7,485 bases of DNA from a virus (lineage: Duplodnaviria > Heunggongvirae > Uroviricota > Caudoviricetes), in the IMG/VR virus record IMGVR_UViG_2675903661_000009, positions 1-7,485 of that record, one strand, 5' to 3'. This document shows positions 1 through 7,485 of the stretch, piece by piece (the first letter of the stretch is position 1; each line of letters starts with the position of its first letter). The translations under genes were made by a program, and so were the position numbers. A model generated the notes under the pieces. The model saw nothing but the letters and a program-made list of their open reading frames with translations. It did not search any database and was not told the DNA's origin.

Positions 1-192
1 CTCCTTTTACGGAGAGGCGCTAACCTTTCACTTGCTTAGGATGAATGGTCAGGCCTCGGGTTAAACATGAATGTTTGTCCGGGGCCTTTTCACATCCGGC
101 CTTCAGGTGTTCCCTCCGGCCATCAGCCAAAGGCACCCGCGCATACTGTACGGTTTTTGTCTCCTTCCGGCAATCCGTATTCCGGCTGCCTG

Positions 193-3100
193 TCACGATC
201 TCCGGGTAAAACCGGAATCTGTCGATTTCGCCACCATGAGAGTAAAGGCGTCATATCTCCACCGCACCAGCTCTCTCTTTCTCCCTTCCACATCCCCCAT
301 ATTGCCAGGACCACCTTCAACTCTCATTGTCACTGTAATCCGTGTATCTCCCCCTCCTGCCACCACATCCCATACTCCTGAAACGGTGTCCCCGAGGTTG
401 GTGTACGTGTTAACAGCATTGCCATTTCTGTCAAAACGACCTGAAAAACCCGTATCAGCAATTCTCGGTTCTGCCTTAATGACAACTCTTCCGTTAATCT
501 CTATCGTCAGTGTTCCTGAATAGAAAAAGAAGGGAAGGAGTATCAGCTTGCGATCAAACGAAACATCATCAACAAGAGATACCTCCGCCTTAAAGATGAC
601 ATAACCCTCTCCATACTTGTGGTTCGTAATATGGAGCGTGCCATCACGAGGTTCGAAGGAATAGCCCTTGACGATATCACCGATGATTCTGTCTGCGCTA
701 ATGGTTCCTTTAACAACGCAGTTTTCTGCAATGGTCACGTTATTCAGCGTGCCCGAGTTCGCACTGATATGTCCGCTGATGTCAGCATTGCGGGCCGTCA
801 GCCTGCCCTCCGGCGTCAGGGAGAACGTCGGGGGATTGCCGGACGAGGTGATGCTTACTGCAAACAGTCGCTTCAGGAACACATCGTTCATGAACAGCTG
901 ATTCCCCTGCGCCACAAACAGCGGCGTGGTGTTGCCGTTCTCCGGGTTAATCATCGCGATACGGTCCGCCTGCAGCAGTATATTGCTCAGGGGCTGGCCA
1001 TCAGCATCCTCAATCCCCGCACCTATACCGGCAACATACGGAATGCCGTTTTTTGTTTTCTGCACCTTCAGCATGTACAGCGCAGCCAGGTCGTTATTTG
1101 TGTCTGTCTGCACCCGCTGTATCTGCTGTATGGTGGCGCTCTGGTCTTCCAGGGTTTTACTGACCGTCTGCGTGATTTCATTGCGGGTTTCTGTGATGGT
1201 GGTCTTCATCTCCGCCATCAAAATGTGCGGGCCGGAGACACTCCACTGACTGCCTGTCCCCAGATAACGGGCAGAGGTTTCCACCTGAGATGTGTCTGCG
1301 ATTTTTGCCTCCGAAAACCAGAACTCAAACTGTACCGTCGGGTCATACACCGTAAGATGCGGGACCGCCGTTATCTGATAATACCCCGGCGTCAGCTCAA
1401 TGCTGTCCGGTGCTGCAGGCGCATTAATCCGGAACGTGGTGGTGGCAGGTTCGCCCTGCTGGCCGTAGCTGTTTATCGCCCTGACCGTCAGGGTGTATTC
1501 CCCGGGCGGCAGGCCACTGAAACGGTGCTCCGTGTCGGCAGTGATGGCGCTGGTCACCAGGCGGCTGTTTTCACCGTTTCCGCTGGTCAGGCGCAGACTG
1601 AAGCGCACGCCCTTCACCACCCGCGGCGTGTCCCATTTCGCCAGCGCCAGATACTGACCGTCTGAGGCACTCACCTCCACCGTGAGGTGCTGCACTGCCG
1701 GCGGGATGACGCTGTTCAGTGAACCGGAGAGCGGCTCAAAGCGGGCCCCGTTATCCACGATGGCTTCTTTTTCCGGTACGTGCTGCACTGCCGTGATGGC
1801 AAAGGTGCCGTCCGTGTTTTCCCGGATGGAAACACAGCGGAACAGGCGACGACGCAGTGACGGCAGGGAGAGTCCCCACACACCGTATGTCTCCACGCCA
1901 TCCGGCAGGGCGCTGACCTGTATCCGGTCCGGGGCGGGGTGTGCAGTGATGTCCACGCGCACCGGCTTACCGCTGCCGTTAATCAGGTTCACCGTCGATG
2001 TACCTGTCTCCGGCAGTGTCACCTCACGGTCCAGCGTCAGTGTGCGGCTGGCGGCATCGATGGACAGGATGCGTCCGCCGGTCAGGGTCCCGGCGTAGTC
2101 GTTATCACAGATTTCAATGATGTCACCGGGCGTGTGCCGCAGCCCCTGTGACCCGAGCGTGAAATCCACCGTCTGCGTTTCCAGCAGTTCGGTCTTTATC
2201 ACCCACAGTCCGGCACGGTGGGCCTGACCGCGGCTGGTACAGCCAAACGCATCCATCTTCAGCAGATTGCGCCCGTAGCGCAGGATGGCGTCCGGGTCTT
2301 CCACCAGTTCCGTGGAAGTCTGCCAGCCGTTCTGCGGGTCGGTGTAATTCACCTCCACCGCCGTGTGCCGGTCCTTCAGGGCACTGAAGCTGTAGCGGAA
2401 CCCCACGCCGTTATCATCCACCACCACATCGCTGTTGGTGTACGGCCACACCACATCCGACGGACGGTCCTGAACGAACGTCAGCGTCTGGCCGTTCCAT
2501 ACCGGCATACAGCGCATCGCCGAGCAGAAATCCCCCAGGACATCCCAGACCTTACGCTGCTGTGACAGGTACGCATTGAAAGTCATCCGCGGCTCTGTGC
2601 CCCCGAAACCATCCGGGACCGTCTGGTCACAGTACTGCCCGATGGCATACAGTGCCCACTTGTCCACGTCCGGGGCCCCCAGGCGTTTTCCCATCCCGTA
2701 GCGCGGGTGGGTCAGCATGTCCCACAGACACCAGGCCGGGTTATTGCTGTATGCCGGTTTCAGACTCCCGTCCCAGATACCGCTGTAGGTGCGTTTTTCC
2801 GGGTCATAGTTTGACGGCACCTGAATGATGCGACCACGGATATGGTAGTTCACCGTCAGCTGCTGGCCACCAAACTGCTCCGCATCCACCTGCAGCCCCA
2901 CAATGGCCGTGTTCGGGTAGCACTGTTTCACATCGATGATTTCGGTGTATGACGACCACAGCGTTCTGTTCTGCAGCTGGTCCGTGGTGCTGTCCGCCGT
3001 CTCCCTGACCATCCGGATGTTAAAGGGGCGCTCAGGGAGATTATTCAGAATCACCGACGTCAGGTACTGCGAGGTGGTCTTGCCGTTAATGGTGATATCC

Positions 3101-3552
3101 TTCTCCGTCACCCAGTTACCGTTACGCTCAAGCTGAATCAGCAGGCGGACAGAAGAGGGATTACGGTCACCCTTTGAGGTGGTCTCCACCAGTGACTGCA
3201 CCCCGAAGGTGACCCGCAGACGGTCAATGTTCGCTGACGTGATGGTGCGCGTCACCGGCTTTGCCTTCGTCACCTCCACGCCCAGTGCGGTTTCAGCCCC
3301 GGAAGACTCAAAGCCTTCCGGCGGTGTCTGCTCCTGCTCCCCGGCACGCCAGACGGCGGTCACACCGTGTATCACGGGATTACCGTCCGTGTCCGTCAGC
3401 GGGGTTTTGTTCACCAGAATACTCTGCAGTCCCTTCACCGGACCTTCCACCGGTCCCTCACCGATGGCATCAATCACGCTCATCATCTGCGTGGATTTGA
3501 GATTGTCCTTCGCCTCACGCGGTGTGTGCCCCTTGCCGCCCCCTTTACCCAC
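193..3552 (-). CDS. J: Tail tip host-specificity protein J (central tail fibre), about 1119 aa
   Basis: Minus-strand ORF 193..3603 in the track. From the internal GTG at 3550-3552 the product reads [22 protein letters not shown]..., which aligns with the lambda gpJ N-terminus ([22 protein letters not shown]) as I recall it. Similarity continues across most of the length (e.g. [36 protein letters not shown]). The tool's TTG start at 3603 lies 17 codons upstream without matching homology. Stop TGA at 193-195. Confidence 0.9.
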
Positions 3553-3557
3553 TCTGT

Positions 3558-3568
3558 CCCCCTCTCCT
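3558..3568 (-). promoter_or_regulatory. Shine-Dalgarno region for J (AGGAGAGGGGG), 5 nt upstream of the GTG start
   Basis: Minus strand reads ACAGGAGAGGGGGACAGA-GTG-GGT-AAA; the purine-rich AGGAG/GGGGG block is at appropriate spacing from GTG 3552..3550. Confidence 0.5.
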
Positions 3569-3590
3569 GTCTGATGTCTGAATCTGTTTA

Positions 3591-3625
3591 TGCCAGAAAA
3601 CAACAGGCACCCCGGAGGGTGCCTG
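3591..3625 (-). terminator. Intrinsic-terminator-like hairpin (9-bp GC-rich stem, 4-nt loop) followed by a U-rich tract on the minus strand; possible attenuator upstream of J
   Basis: Plus 3604-3612 caggcaccc pairs perfectly with 3617-3625 gggtgcctg, loop cgga. On the minus strand the stem is followed by UUGUUUUCUGG (plus 3603..3593). It sits about 40 nt upstream of the J start codon. Confidence 0.4.
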
Positions 3626-3755
3626 TGTCATGACGGAATAAAATTTCTGAAACTCTTCACATTTCCGGCAACTGCCTGTAGCCGCAATAATGACGCTGCG
3701 TTACTTTTTTGATGCCTGAAAAATAACTCCATAACGTTAATCTTCATCGTTATTT

Positions 3756-3793
3756 CCCGCAGCTCCGCTAACTCTGCGGGATTTTTTTATTTT
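3756..3793 (+). terminator. Plus-strand rho-independent terminator (7-bp stem, 11-nt loop, T-tract ATTTTTTTATTTT), antisense to the tail operon
   Basis: Plus 3756-3762 cccgcag pairs perfectly with 3774-3780 ctgcggg; a run of 7 T, then A, then 4 T follows at 3781-3793. On the minus strand the hairpin is flanked by A-rich sequence, so terminator polarity is plus only. The T-tract abuts and overlaps the stop codon of I (3793-3795). Confidence 0.45.
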
Positions 3794-4473
3794 CATCCCC
3801 GCCCGATAACCACCACTTTCCCGTCTCCGCCCTCATCACGGGTGCTGATATCCTGGGATATCCGTCGTGAACCAACCAGCATTTCACCGTAAGGCACCGG
3901 CATCGGGTTACCCTGGGCAATCATGTTGTCCAGTGACGAAAAATACGTGTTCTGTTTACCGTTATCCGTACTTTTGTATTCCGGCGTCTTTGCCTTCGGG
4001 GCCAGCATCTGAGCCACACCACCCAGTATCATGCTGGCACCCAGTGAGAACAGCATCGTGGTGGCAGTCAGCCCTCCGGCACTCAGGGCTGCGCCCCACA
4101 ACGCCATCGTTGCACCGGCTGTGAAGAAAGAGCCCACGATGGCTGCTGCCCCCAGCACCACCTGAAAAACACCATTTCCCCCGGCTCCGGCCAGTCGCGG
4201 CACAATGTGGATGACCGCTCCCTCACCCAGTTGTTCGTGAAGACAGGCATACACCGCCTCCGGCGCGGTATCCTCACCGGCAATACGTATCTGATACCAG
4301 CCTTCGTTCATCTGACAGCGGAATCCCGGCACCTGCAGCGACAGGGCACGGATGGCCTCCGCTGCCGTGTTCACATACAGGCTGATGCGGCGACCAAATC
4401 GTTGTAAATCCCCGTGAAGGCAGATGCGGACCAGTGGCGGTGACGCCAGACAGAATGCGTTCGTCGTTGCCAT
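3793..4473 (-). CDS. I: Tail tip assembly protein I, 226 aa
   Basis: Minus ORF with ATG at 4473..4471. The product (ICLHGDLQRFGRRI ... GKQNTYFSSLDNM ... VVVIGRG) resembles lambda gpI (223 aa in lambda, from memory), including the Gly/Ala-rich hydrophobic segment. Its 5' end overlaps the 3' end of K by 103 nt in another frame, as in lambda. Possible SD GAGAGG about 11 nt upstream. Confidence 0.85.
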   Translation of the reverse strand: MATTNAFCLASPPLVRICLHGDLQRFGRRISLYVNTAAEAIRALSLQVPGFRCQMNEGWYQIRIAGEDTAPEAVYACLHEQLGEGAVIHIVPRLAGAGGNGVFQVVLGAAAIVGSFFTAGATMALWGAALSAGGLTATTMLFSLGASMILGGVAQMLAPKAKTPEYKSTDNGKQNTYFSSLDNMIAQGNPMPVPYGEMLVGSRRISQDISTRDEGGDGKVVVIGRG

Positions 4474-5114
4474 TTTTCAGAATACCTCTCCCGTTTACTC
4501 AGTTGTTCAGGTATATGGTGAAGCAGTTCACCGTTGCCACAGTAAATGGCGGCATGATTCGGCACCGATGAACCAAAGCAGCACAGCAGGATATCGCCTG
4601 CCTGTGCACAGGACGGAGACACCCGGTAAAAGCCGTTGTCCGCCAGGTTGTCCAGGTACAGGTTCTGGCCGTTGCGCCACCAGTCATCCTCACGCACAAA
4701 ATCCGGCAGCGTTATCCCCGCCAGATGGTATGCATCCCGGAACAGGGTGTAACAGTCCGTCACACCGTGTTCAAAGCGCCGTCCGGTCAGGTGCGGCACA
4801 CAGCCGAACCGGTGAATTTCACCCCGGCAGACCAGCCACCAGGGCAGGGCACTCTTTATCTGCAGCCGCCGGTCCGCCTCGCTCAGCCAGGGCAGACCAC
4901 CGGGATGACTGTGGACCAGCGCCACAATCTCCCCCTGCATCTCTGCCTGCAGCCAGTCCTCCGGTGTAATACGAAAATACGCCTCCGGCTCTGCGGAGAT
5001 ATTCACGCAGGGCTGGTACCGCTCCCCCTCCGGGGTGCTTATCACGAAGCCGCACGACTCCGCTGGCGCACACCGCCGGGCATGCGCCAGAATCGCTGAT
5101 TCAGTCTGTGTCAT
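4371..5114 (-). CDS. K: Tail tip assembly protein K, 247 aa, with MPN/JAMM and NlpC/P60 peptidase domains
   Basis: Track ORF 4371..5375; homology starts at the internal ATG 5114..5112 (MTQTESAILAHARR...), 10 nt after the L stop. JAMM motif H-x-H-x7-S-x2-D is readable as HSHPGGLPWLSEAD. NlpC/P60-like Cys/His residues appear in GVTDCYTLF and VPNHAAIYCG. Stop TGA at 4371-4373. Confidence 0.85.
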   Translation of the reverse strand: MTQTESAILAHARRCAPAESCGFVISTPEGERYQPCVNISAEPEAYFRITPEDWLQAEMQGEIVALVHSHPGGLPWLSEADRRLQIKSALPWWLVCRGEIHRFGCVPHLTGRRFEHGVTDCYTLFRDAYHLAGITLPDFVREDDWWRNGQNLYLDNLADNGFYRVSPSCAQAGDILLCCFGSSVPNHAAIYCGNGELLHHIPEQLSKRERYSEKWQRRTHSVWRHRHWSASAFTGIYNDLVAASACM

Positions 5115-5124
5115 AAAACGGGAT

Positions 5125-5823
5125 TTACTGCGAAAGTTTATTAATGGAAAGGAAACCGCCGAAATTAGCCACCATGCCGCGCATCTCACACCCGCGCATG
5201 CATTTACTGCATCTGTCCTTCCGGCTATCCGTGGTGGGGTTGTCGAACTCATCCGCCACTGCCGGACCGTTATACCCGCATTCATCGCCCCGGTAATCCC
5301 ACATACAGGTGTTCGCCAGCATGATGCGACCGGGAAACAGCGCACCGTCCGTCTCCGTCGGTGTCGCCAGCACAAACGAGGCCGTCATGGCCGTCAGCGC
5401 TGACATCTGCTCCACCACCCAGCGGTCGGTCAGCTCCTGCTCCGGGTCCGCTTCCGGATTGCCTGCAACGAAATTCACCGCATCCAGAAAACGCGCATAC
5501 ACCCGACGGCGGACCACCGTTGCACCCACCAGACTCTGCAGGTCTTCCGCCATCCCGGTGACCAGCCCGAAAAGATTGGACACTGTCAGCGACGGGCGGG
5601 CACTGCTGCCCTTTCCGTTCATCTCAAAGCCGCTGCCCTCAATCGGGTATGCCTGATATTCACGCCCCTGCCAGGTCACCGGCTCCCCTTTTTCATTCAG
5701 CTCATTGCAGAAAAAATACCGCTCACCGCCCTGCACCGTCAGGTCGATTTCCCAGAGCACCACCCGCGGTGACTGCTCTGACTTAACCGACTCGTTCAGG
5801 CTTTCTTCGTGAATATCCTGCAT
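5125..5823 (-). CDS. L: Minor tail (tail tip) protein L, 232 aa
   Basis: Track ORF 5125..5850 begins at a GTG; the lambda-like N-terminus (MQDIHEESLNE...) starts at ATG 5823..5821, giving 232 aa, the same length as lambda gpL. Conserved blocks include VVLWEIDLT, GERYFFCNE, GEPVTWQG, FPGRIMLANTC and the C-terminal FGGFLSINKLSQ. A four-Cys pattern C-x22-C-x2-C-x3-C lies near the C-terminus. The start overlaps the M stop by one base (TGATG). Confidence 0.85.
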   Translation of the reverse strand: MQDIHEESLNESVKSEQSPRVVLWEIDLTVQGGERYFFCNELNEKGEPVTWQGREYQAYPIEGSGFEMNGKGSSARPSLTVSNLFGLVTGMAEDLQSLVGATVVRRRVYARFLDAVNFVAGNPEADPEQELTDRWVVEQMSALTAMTASFVLATPTETDGALFPGRIMLANTCMWDYRGDECGYNGPAVADEFDNPTTDSRKDRCSKCMRGCEMRGMVANFGGFLSINKLSQ

Positions 5824-6164
5824 CAGTTCACCACCTGCTCTATCGTGCAACTGAAATCACTGTACCGGGCGTTATCCGTAATACTCCACTCCCGGCACAC
5901 CACCCTGACCGTCCGGTTATGTTTCGGGGGCTTCCACAAAAAAGCCCGGTAACCACCATGCCATGACAGAAACGCGGACAGTGCCTCCCGCTCAGCATCC
6001 GTTGTCACCCGAAAAACCACCTGAAAGGTCTTCAGTTGCGCATTCAGTCCTGCCGGACGACGCTGCTGATAACCGTCGCCAAACTTCACCGTCATCACCG
6101 ACGGTTTCTCCGTCACCTGCATCCCTTCCCGGGGACACCAGTGAAGGGTCTTAATCTCATCCAC
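5823..6164 (-). CDS. M: Tail tip assembly protein M, about 113 aa (start codon uncertain)
   Basis: Minus ORF ending TGA at 5823-5825; product contains FGDGYQQRRPAGLNAQLKT, HGGYRAFLWKPP and C-terminal EQVVN, matching lambda gpM (109 aa) as recalled. The tool's start is GTG at 6164..6162, overlapping the H stop by 8 nt. The lambda-equivalent first residue aligns with an ATT (Ile) codon at 6155..6153, so the true start is either the GTG or not resolvable by eye. Confidence 0.75.
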   Translation of the reverse strand: MDEIKTLHWCPREGMQVTEKPSVMTVKFGDGYQQRRPAGLNAQLKTFQVVFRVTTDAEREALSAFLSWHGGYRAFLWKPPKHNRTVRVVCREWSITDNARYSDFSCTIEQVVN

Positions 6165-7485
6165 TCAGCATTCCTCCGTCACGACGCATGGATAACATCA
6201 CCGCCTGTACCCGCTGGTCAATCAGTTGCACAAGGGTGCCCGCCGCTTCCGGCCCTATCTGCCCGTTAGCGCCGTCATTCTGAATGGCGATGTGGTACAC
6301 CGGGGAATACACCAGACCCGCACTGCCGTTCATACTGCCCACCGCACGCACGCCGAGTGAACCATCCGCTGCCCGGGTCAGGGGCATGATGGCTTCAGGT
6401 CCGGCCTCCCCCATCAGCCCTGCCCCTTTTGCAAAGGCAAAGTACGTGGGCGTGTCCACAATACTGTTACTGTATGCACTCAGGTTTGCCGAGGTATAAA
6501 CGCCGCCTTTTGCATTTGCCACCGCGCCACCCAGCCAGTTGCCTATACTGCCGAAAAATCCTCCTGCACCGGACATACTGTTTGCCGCCATCTTAATGCC
6601 GTTGACAATGGCCGCATTCATAAGAACTTTTGATATTTCCTGCAGGATTGATGCAGCCCAGCTGCGCCATTCCACTTTATTTCCGTTCAGCATCTCCGTG
6701 ATGTTATTCACCATCCCTGAGATACCGTCTGTCGCAAGCTGTGCTGCCTGTGAAGCGTAATCTGATGCGCTGTCCACCCAGTTACTTAGCCCTTCCTGCA
6801 GCCCTTTCTGCCAGTCAGCACGCTGCGCATCCGATTCGGCATAAAAAGCCTCCTGGTCTTTAAGGCGTTCACTCAGATACTGCGCATTCTGCGCCAGCGC
6901 CTGTCTGTAAAAATCCTCACTGATATCCCCTGTCTGATACTGAGACTGCAGGTCCGCATCCTTCTGGCGGTAGCCGTCACGAATCTGCTGCAGCTCCCGC
7001 ATCCGTTCACGGACCCGCTCACCCTGCCCGTACCCCAGCAGCTCAGCGTCATTTGATGCCCTTGCGTCTGCATTATCATTTTTCAGGGTCTCCTCCCGGG
7101 CCCGTAACTGCTCCCGGATTTTCTTCTGGTCAATCAGGGCTGCATTGCGCAGCAGCTCCTGCTTCTGTATCTCCGTCAGGGTTTTCAGCTCGCCCTGCGA
7201 GGTCTGGTATTTCAGTTTTGCCAGTTCTGTATTCTTCCCGGCCAGTGCCAGTTGTTCCTTCTGCTGCTTCAGCAGACGGGAAAAACTGTCTTCCGCTTTT
7301 TCCGCCCCTGATTTTCCGGCCCGGGATTTGGGTTTATTCGCCTCATTATTGCGCCAGGCTTCCATCGAATTACGGATGTAACGCTGCCTCGCCTCCTGAT
7401 ACGTATCCCCCACCAGACCAAGGTCATCCGCCGCATACCCCAGCCGGGCACGCTCTTTTTCTTCCCCTTTCAGCCGGGACAGGGC
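6157..7485 (-). CDS. H: Tail tape measure protein H, C-terminal about 442 aa (5' end lies beyond the right edge)
   Basis: Track ORF 6157..7413. I translated 7414..7485 in the same frame and found no stop, so the ORF is open to the window edge. The product has charged, coiled-coil-like Q/E/K/R-rich repeats followed by a Gly-rich C-terminal region (GGFFGSIGNWLGGAVANAKGG), typical of lambda-like tape measure proteins. Stop TGA at 6157-6159. Confidence 0.85.
   Translation of the reverse strand, partial: ALSRLKGEEKERARLGYAADDLGLVGDTYQEARQRYIRNSMEAWRNNEANKPKSRAGKSGAEKAEDSFSRLLKQQKEQLALAGKNTELAKLKYQTSQGELKTLTEIQKQELLRNAALIDQKKIREQLRAREETLKNDNADARASNDAELLGYGQGERVRERMRELQQIRDGYRQKDADLQSQYQTGDISEDFYRQALAQNAQYLSERLKDQEAFYAESDAQRADWQKGLQEGLSNWVDSASDYASQAAQLATDGISGMVNNITEMLNGNKVEWRSWAASILQEISKVLMNAAIVNGIKMAANSMSGAGGFFGSIGNWLGGAVANAKGGVYTSANLSAYSNSIVDTPTYFAFAKGAGLMGEAGPEAIMPLTRAADGSLGVRAVGSMNGSAGLVYSPVYHIAIQNDGANGQIGPEAAGTLVQLIDQRVQAVMLSMRRDGGMLSG

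Follow-up and report, generated by a model that had tools for sequence, protein, structure and literature searches.

We have analysed a 7,485-nucleotide (nt) stretch of viral DNA from IMG/VR (IMGVR_UViG_2675903661_000009), here called the window, with particular attention to the distal end of its gene J, which encodes the tip attachment or central tail fibre protein of a lambda-type phage tail. We conclude, with a probability of roughly 0.85, that window positions 196-666 encode the distal receptor-binding domain of this J protein, and that the domain is a rare, diverged gpJ tip that was acquired by recombination. Coordinates are those of the window unless another record is named, and J and its neighbours all lie on the minus strand.

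Divergence of the J tail from lambda gpJ

The J frame is intact across all 1119 codons in our list of open reading frames (ORFs). In a global MAFFT alignment, J was 73.2% identical to lambda gpJ over amino acids (aa) 1-777, which comprise the hub and FNIII domains, and 68.0% identical over aa 841-962, which comprise the prism and linker, but only 24.1% identical over the tip, aa 963-1119, where 116 of the 157 columns could be aligned. An earlier, sequence-only reading of this DNA had placed a close likeness to lambda upstream of the tail, as we observed, with the block NVTIAENC as its boundary marker; that block is encoded at 724-747 rather than at 718-741 as first given, an offset of 6 nt. 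The break from lambda falls right after the sequence IIGDIVK, at aa 962 (window 667-669). Upstream of it, Pfam searches recognized FNIII-A_GpJ, Phage-tail_3, Ig_J, Ig_J_second and Phage_Tail_Tip domains, with E-values of 1e-37 to 3e-41 for the hub, FNIII-A, Phage-tail_3 and Ig_J domains and of 4e-24 for Phage_Tail_Tip (PF09327, the beta-prism, at aa 807-934, next to which lies the conserved linker), and phmmer matched aa 1-773 to the solved lambda gpJ of PDB entry 8IYK with E=0.

The base composition of the gene changes with its sequence. The last 157 codons have a guanine plus cytosine (GC) content of 48.0%, and of 45.9% at third codon positions (GC3), compared with 59.3% and 73.9% in the rest of J, a drop in GC3 of 28 points. 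Among 805 codon-aligned segments of equal size (471 nt) taken elsewhere in J, the minimum GC was 53.5% (mean 59.7%, sd 3.0) and the minimum GC3 63.7%, and positions 718-7485 of the window contain no 471-nt stretch as GC-poor as the exchanged segment, whose trough (GC 42%, GC3 40%) lies at 400-549. When tip and backbone were compared in other phages, the GC values were 52% and 59% for phage 1720a-02, 47% and 59% for PhiR12 and 56% and 57% for lambda, and among the J tips compared the drop was most extreme for the window-type tip. The GC profile of J is thus not flat, the tail DNA is AT-rich as had been claimed, and the identity of the C-terminus to lambda is not high.

Exchange of the tip between phages

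Comparisons with related phages placed sharp edges on both sides of the divergent segment. Phage 1720a-02 is 96.4% identical to the window over positions 718-1219 and 99.4% identical over 1-176, but has no similarity to it over 177-717, where it carries a different, lambda-type tip of 130 aa. In a base-level alignment of the two, identity fell from about 96% to about 70% at approximately position 745, and a residual similarity at the codon level persisted to 667 and was lost below that point; on the other side, the edge at 176/177 lies seventeen bases beyond the J stop codon. Prophage HY220605 behaves like 1720a-02, in that its flanks match the window and its tip differs, the flanks of these two records being 96-99% identical to the window around an unrelated insert, and in more than 100 records of Shiga toxin (Stx) phages the match to the window ends at about position 730. 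The tips of 1720a-02, HY220605 and Stx-phage JLK-2012 occupy the same slot on J backbones that are 94-96% identical to that of the window, and the copies in 1720a-02 and HY220605 have the same hok/sok flank. Unlike the window tip, however, all three are lambda-like, 130-132 aa long and 40-42% identical to the lambda tip.

The same tip was also observed on a different backbone. In strain STEC2018-553 (locus L004; STEC, Shiga toxin-producing Escherichia coli) and in IMG/VR contigs L011 and L012, the cassette forms the C-terminus of an intact fibre of 588 aa, whose first 388 aa match L0125 of 933W, a short-tailed Stx phage, at 96.6% identity. These 3 loci align with window positions 11-800 or 99-800 at 89-91% DNA identity, and in STEC2018-553 the identity over the cassette by itself (193-666) is 93.7%. 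In 933W itself, the slot after L0125 aa 388 is occupied by a different L0125 end, followed by L0126, L0127 and lom, whereas in L004, L011 and L012 the 388-aa segment is followed by a form of the window-type tip (allele B, below) and then by hok. L0125 of 933W (Traversvirus) is a podovirus fibre and not a lambda-type tail tip. The composition of the 933W-type fibre backbone, GC 50.7% and GC3 49.9%, is close to that of the cassette, and hints that the 933W-type fibre lineage was the donor.

The L004 fibre, at positions 4842-6608 of that locus, is composed of the 388-aa N-terminal part of 933W L0125 joined to a J-like prism, linker and window-type tip cassette. In RefSeq only 4842-6005 is annotated at this locus, as an incomplete pseudogene, and the tip is left unannotated.

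Because the same flanks carry different tips, and the same tip is carried on different backbones, we consider it supported that the tip is a horizontally exchanged module, an instance of ordinary phage mosaicism and a textbook case of modular gpJ-tip exchange. The sharp DNA breakpoints, the occurrence of the cassette on an unrelated backbone and the drop in GC3 all agree with the earlier proposal that the receptor-recognition domain had been replaced horizontally. It could be argued instead that a lambda-like tip evolved into the present tail where it stood, through fast point mutation under selection for host range and with no horizontal replacement; receptor-binding domains are known to evolve quickly, and the tip is colinear with that of lambda and has kept its core motifs. 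Yet in-place divergence would have to account for a DNA identity to close relatives that, at either edge, drops from 96-99% to none over a few bases, for the GC3 difference, for the presence of the same cassette on a 933W-type fibre whose sequence ahead of the prism has no relation to J, and for a difference between alleles that is itself a mosaic patch with a high synonymous divergence. The breakpoints in these alignments largely refute it, and we regard it as highly improbable. Features of the exchanged region and of the rest of J are collected in Table 1.

Table 1. Positions of the J cassette, its edges and associated features in the window
Feature	Position	Strand	Remarks
Proposed receptor-binding-domain cassette, J aa 963-1119 (157 aa)	196..666	-	Divergent gpJ-type beta-sandwich, predicted C-terminal helix
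Conserved linker, J aa 936-962	667..747	-	5'-edge crossover zone; 67% aa identity to lambda
3' edge of exchanged segment, just past J stop	177..192	-	Identity to 1720a-02 back at 176
Hypervariable patch in cassette, J aa 1028-1055	388..471	-	Separates allele A from allele B
hok/sok-type leader directly downstream of J	4..138	-	Conserved 3' flank, outside the cassette
J, tip attachment / central tail fibre protein	193..3552	-	1119 aa; GTG start 3550-3552, TGA stop 193-195
Divergent helical-shaft-like block, J aa 778-840	1033..1221	-	27.4% identity to lambda aa 814-877; 34-aa gap beside it
189-nt in-frame deletion junction, J aa 777/778	1220..1221	-	One Leu in place of 63 codons

The conserved 3' flank of the cassette is a type I toxin-antitoxin locus, which stands where lambda has lom. 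The Rfam sok model (RF01794) matched it with 51.8 bits and E 1.4e-9, below the gathering score of 59, and in relatives the Hok/Gef coding sequence begins about 10 nt past the end of the window. We considered whether hok/sok is part of the cassette and rejected this, as the flank is 99% common to 1720a-02, whose tip differs.

Relationship of the tip to known gpJ tips

With regard to the sequence-only claim that the tail does not resemble the C-terminus of lambda gpJ, the low identity stands, whereas the predicted fold and the core motifs do resemble those of the lambda tip. The window tip matched lambda gpJ and A8 gpJ weakly by phmmer, through the linker and a DDxxFDR motif. An alignment of 6 tip types was colinear, with D33, F37, D38, R39, G73, S96, A103, G104, G106 and K147 invariant, and both DDxxFDR and a second core motif, AGxG, are common to all 6. 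Profile-profile comparison of the tip with lambda-type tips by hhalign gave a homology probability of 89% with E 2.4e-6 over 66 columns. An AlphaFold2 (AF2) model, built on a 79-sequence alignment that consisted mostly of PF12421 sequences, had the form of a beta-sandwich with one late helix, with a predicted local distance difference test score (pLDDT) of 71 and a predicted template modelling score (pTM) of 0.67. When this model was compared with the PDB by Foldseek, the top 4 matches were all gpJ tips, at E 4e-9 to 9e-8 and template modelling (TM) scores of 0.45-0.52: 8XCJ (lambda tip bound to LamB), 8XCK (closed lambda tip), 9WCB (A8 tip with OmpC) and 9WCA (A8 tip without OmpC). The next match was at E 8e-5, and generic carbohydrate-binding jelly rolls followed. 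Two other attempts were uninformative: the last 184 aa, modelled by AlphaFold as a single sequence, reached an unusable pLDDT of 30, and Foldseek against BFVD returned only generic jelly-roll or C1q-like matches with TM <0.42.

The lambda tip itself (aa ~1000-1132), which binds LamB, was the best structural match of the model (E 4e-9, TM 0.52), and it resembles the window tip in its position at the end of J, in the linker that precedes it and in the two core motifs. The 2 tips nevertheless have no DNA homology and differ in length, 157 aa in the window and 133 aa in lambda, and the window tip has, unlike that of lambda, an inserted variable segment, a predicted C-terminal helix and a score below the PF12421 threshold. 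The A8 tip, which was solved in complex with OmpC of EDL933 and supplied the third and fourth best structural matches, is together with the 1A2 chimera (Nature 2024, PMC11338833) an example of a natural E. coli prophage C-terminus that is exchangeable at the conserved stretch before the tip. By sequence, however, A8 seems to be of the lambda and Stx-phage type (motifs FDRQ and DMPAGQG), whereas the window tip belongs to a separate and much rarer lineage. To judge from the motif alignment, the profile comparison and the predicted model, then, the window tip appears to be a deeply diverged homologue of the lambda tip, with the known gpJ fold, rather than a foreign or unrelated domain.

Several points weigh against the reading of this segment as a gpJ tip acquired by recombination. 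Pfam did not recognize the tip as Ig_GpJ_C (PF12421): the score was 14.6 bits, with E 0.034, over residues 46-73 of a 175-aa query, and the gathering cut-off is 26.2 bits. The AF2 model is moderate and its alignment was dominated by lambda-type sequences, and its match to gpJ tips is therefore partly circular. The hhalign comparison is free of that alignment bias, but its profiles were very small, with 3 sequences each. Every tip cassette we examined is somewhat GC-poorer than its backbone, and low GC by itself is not specific for recent transfer. A literature search on the PhiR12 phages, the carriers of the nearest relative of the tip, gave, within the library covered, no reported receptor and nothing else of relevance. 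Finally, the J protein of the window is 63 aa short in FNIII-2 and the shaft, and may be non-functional whatever its tip does.

Distribution of the cassette and its two alleles

Among 5426 complete E. coli genomes, sensitive blastn searches detected the cassette, intact and well conserved, in 10, nine of them human-derived and one food-derived; it was also present in 4 IMG/VR contigs. Three of the 10 strain names are labelled STEC, and one copy lies in the context of a 933W-like Stx-type prophage. No match to the cassette was obtained on plasmids by tblastn, and a pattern scan of the GTDB species representatives likewise brought up no relative. An exhaustive search of 1.84 billion representative proteins returned 3 hits, of which 2 were repeat artefacts and the third a J fragment with a PhiR12-type tip (34% identity by phmmer); similarly, in tblastn comparisons with 50,697 phage records, only five PhiR12 phages matched, at 36% identity. 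Our statement that the tip is rare is based on the DNA searches and on the exhaustive representative-protein search. A separate protein homologue search with the 157-aa tip found nothing and its profiles returned only fragments of <276 aa; full-length J seems to be beyond the reach of that search, whose silence is not evidence of rarity.

The PhiR12-type tip is the only sequence relative that we found. It occurs in PhiR12_1 to PhiR12_5 (PV340549-54) and also in P0002 and P0004-P0006, and resembles the window tip in its linker, in its length of 151 aa and in its low GC (46.6%). The 2 tips are 32-36% identical, however, and thus differ at two-thirds of their positions.

The cassette occurs at 18 places in the 10 genomes, with up to 3 copies per genome (NZ_AP045178.1, NZ_AP045170.1 and NZ_CP027340.1), and several prophages of one strain may share a window-type tip.

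Two alleles of the cassette could be distinguished, A in the window, KY202 and L009, and B in L006, L004, L011 and L012. Allele B is found on both kinds of backbone, lambda-like J in L006 and the 933W-L0125-type fibre in the other three. Between the window and L006, 20 of the 26 nucleotide differences and 12 of the 15 nonsynonymous codons are concentrated in an 84-nt hypervariable patch (binomial P 4e-8). Within it, the synonymous divergence (dS) was 0.27 and the nonsynonymous divergence (dN) 0.29, compared with 0.018 and 0.011 outside. We rejected positive selection as the sole cause of the patch, since its dS is as high as its dN; this pattern suggests that the patch is a smaller, recombined mosaic piece within the cassette, and not the product of selection on point mutations alone. 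The patch was gapped against lambda in the hhalign alignment and was modelled with low confidence. It probably forms receptor-facing loops, and we infer that it sets specificity. It also gives an indirect hint that the tip may bind an outer-membrane porin, LamB or OmpC, with its distal loops.

Possible receptor and mode of action

The C-terminus of gpJ determines host specificity, and a lambda in which the tail fibre gene of phage 434 stands in place of J is directed to OmpC (PMC11101478). Natural gpJ C-termini joined at lambda aa 964 likewise gave functional, OmpC-specific particles (PMC11338833), and the natural crossover that we describe here falls in the same conserved stretch before the tip as that published graft junction. 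When the trimeric tip of lambda binds, four of its loops enter LamB, upon which the prism twists, the shaft flips, the FNIII strings are freed and the tube is opened (PMC11101478). By analogy, we propose that a trimeric window tip would contact an outer-membrane receptor, and that binding would be relayed through the beta-prism, the helical shaft and the FNIII domains to open the tail, a relay that is expected for the window J because the backbone architecture upstream of the tip has been kept. The module was brought onto J through one crossover in the conserved linker (window 667-747) and another at 176/177, before the hok/sok locus, and it circulates among STEC prophages on 2 backbones, either lambda-like J or a fibre of the L0125 type as in 933W-like short-tailed Stx phages.

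The module would bind a protein receptor, and this receptor is likely to be other than LamB, because the A8 tip, with a sequence much nearer to that of lambda, was solved in complex with OmpC (PMC11338833). A tip that still bound LamB in spite of its divergence would be in keeping with its membership of the same fold family as the LamB-binding tip of lambda, and also with the observation that GpJ tips of Drexlerviridae with little or no homology to lambda target LamB (bioRxiv 10.64898/2026.04.02.716166). An unchanged receptor nonetheless appears improbable to us for a chain that is 24 aa longer than the lambda tip, only ~24% identical to it and interrupted by an inserted variable segment, when the far more lambda-like A8 tip was solved in complex with OmpC.

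More tentatively, the window-type and PhiR12-type tips may constitute a separate branch of gpJ tips, with an E. coli outer-membrane receptor not yet assigned to lambda-like J, that moves as a unit between long-tailed and short-tailed STEC prophages and would thereby place one specificity on two virion architectures. This is a possibility that we put forward without favouring it.

Exchange of the gpJ C-terminus is an established receptor switch of lambdoid phages and has already been used to retarget lambda-based delivery particles (PMC11338833). The present cassette leaves the understanding of how J acts unchanged; it adds a rare tip type that is not recognized by Pfam and that occurred, in the data searched, only in STEC-associated prophages. 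Given that the tip is also found on a 933W-type fibre, Stx-related phages of 2 morphologies may be rivals for a common set of hosts, or may spread by way of them. The cassette could serve as a part in host-range engineering and as a data point for sequence-based receptor prediction.

A divergent shaft block and a private deletion in J

A second divergent block in the middle of J, noted from the sequence at the outset, is real, with 27% identity to lambda over aa 778-840. Its DNA is 96-99.9% identical to that of STEC prophages and phage 1720a-02. The divergence is in part a helical-shaft variant that is common to STEC prophages, and the rest is a deletion of 189 nt, in which one Leu stands in place of 63 codons (KPGKDFW...QLDDE); the junction contains a 2-nt filler and is not flanked by a repeat. 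Every relative examined, including L001, L003 and L009, retains the 189 extra nt, and searches for the deletion junction gave no match in complete E. coli genomes, in IMG/VR, among GTDB representatives or in metagenome contigs. The final strands, or C-terminal half, of FNIII-2 are lost together with the start of the helical shaft, and neither domain is complete in the J of the window; accordingly, the Pfam match to Ig_J_second is confined to profile positions 2-65 of 105. The deletion could be a real defect or an error of sequencing or assembly.

This deletion bears on whether the cassette is part of a decaying remnant, that is, of a defective prophage with an inactivated J whose C-terminal sequence has no current function. 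Besides the private deletion in FNIII-2 and the shaft, the frameshift in the J gene of L006 and the designation of the L004 fibre as a pseudogene by the Prokaryotic Genome Annotation Pipeline (PGAP) are as decay would predict. However, all 1119 codons of J are open and the deletion preserves the frame; several full-length J genes, of 1182 aa, carry the cassette with 99-100% conservation; the L004 ORF is, despite its PGAP label, intact at 588 aa; and outside the hypervariable patch the dN/dS ratio between alleles, calculated from very few changes, is 0.64. We therefore consider decay unlikely, although it is the rival to which we give most weight, and prefer the reading of the cassette as a recombined, receptor-binding gpJ tip.

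Layout of the window and adjacent observations

On the minus strand, the ORF list shows H, in its 3' part only, followed by M, L, K, I and J, the closing portion of a tail gene block of lambda type; the order H-M-L-K-I-J matches that of the lambda type and is annotated identically in related prophages. RefSeq relatives of J are annotated as gpJ and start at a position equivalent to the GTG of the window. The corresponding start in lambda is ATG, and in the window the frame stays open for another 17 codons ahead of the GTG, as far as a TTG at 3601-3603. An exact-protein look-up of J with either start codon found no record.

The gap between I and J (3553-3792), approximately 240 nt as against about 60 nt in lambda and with a lower GC of ~48-49%, is conserved in relatives and contains no convincing ORF; one phage record has a 50-aa hypothetical protein that overlaps the end of I at this location.

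In several close relatives the prophage has an ompC porin gene inserted between M and L, for example at 3362-4516 of L014 (JNEC-KY171), and some of these ompC-carrying relatives share the tip of the window, in which the porin is absent and M and L overlap directly (5823-5850). We did not use the prophage ompC as a clue to the receptor, as it also accompanies other tip types.

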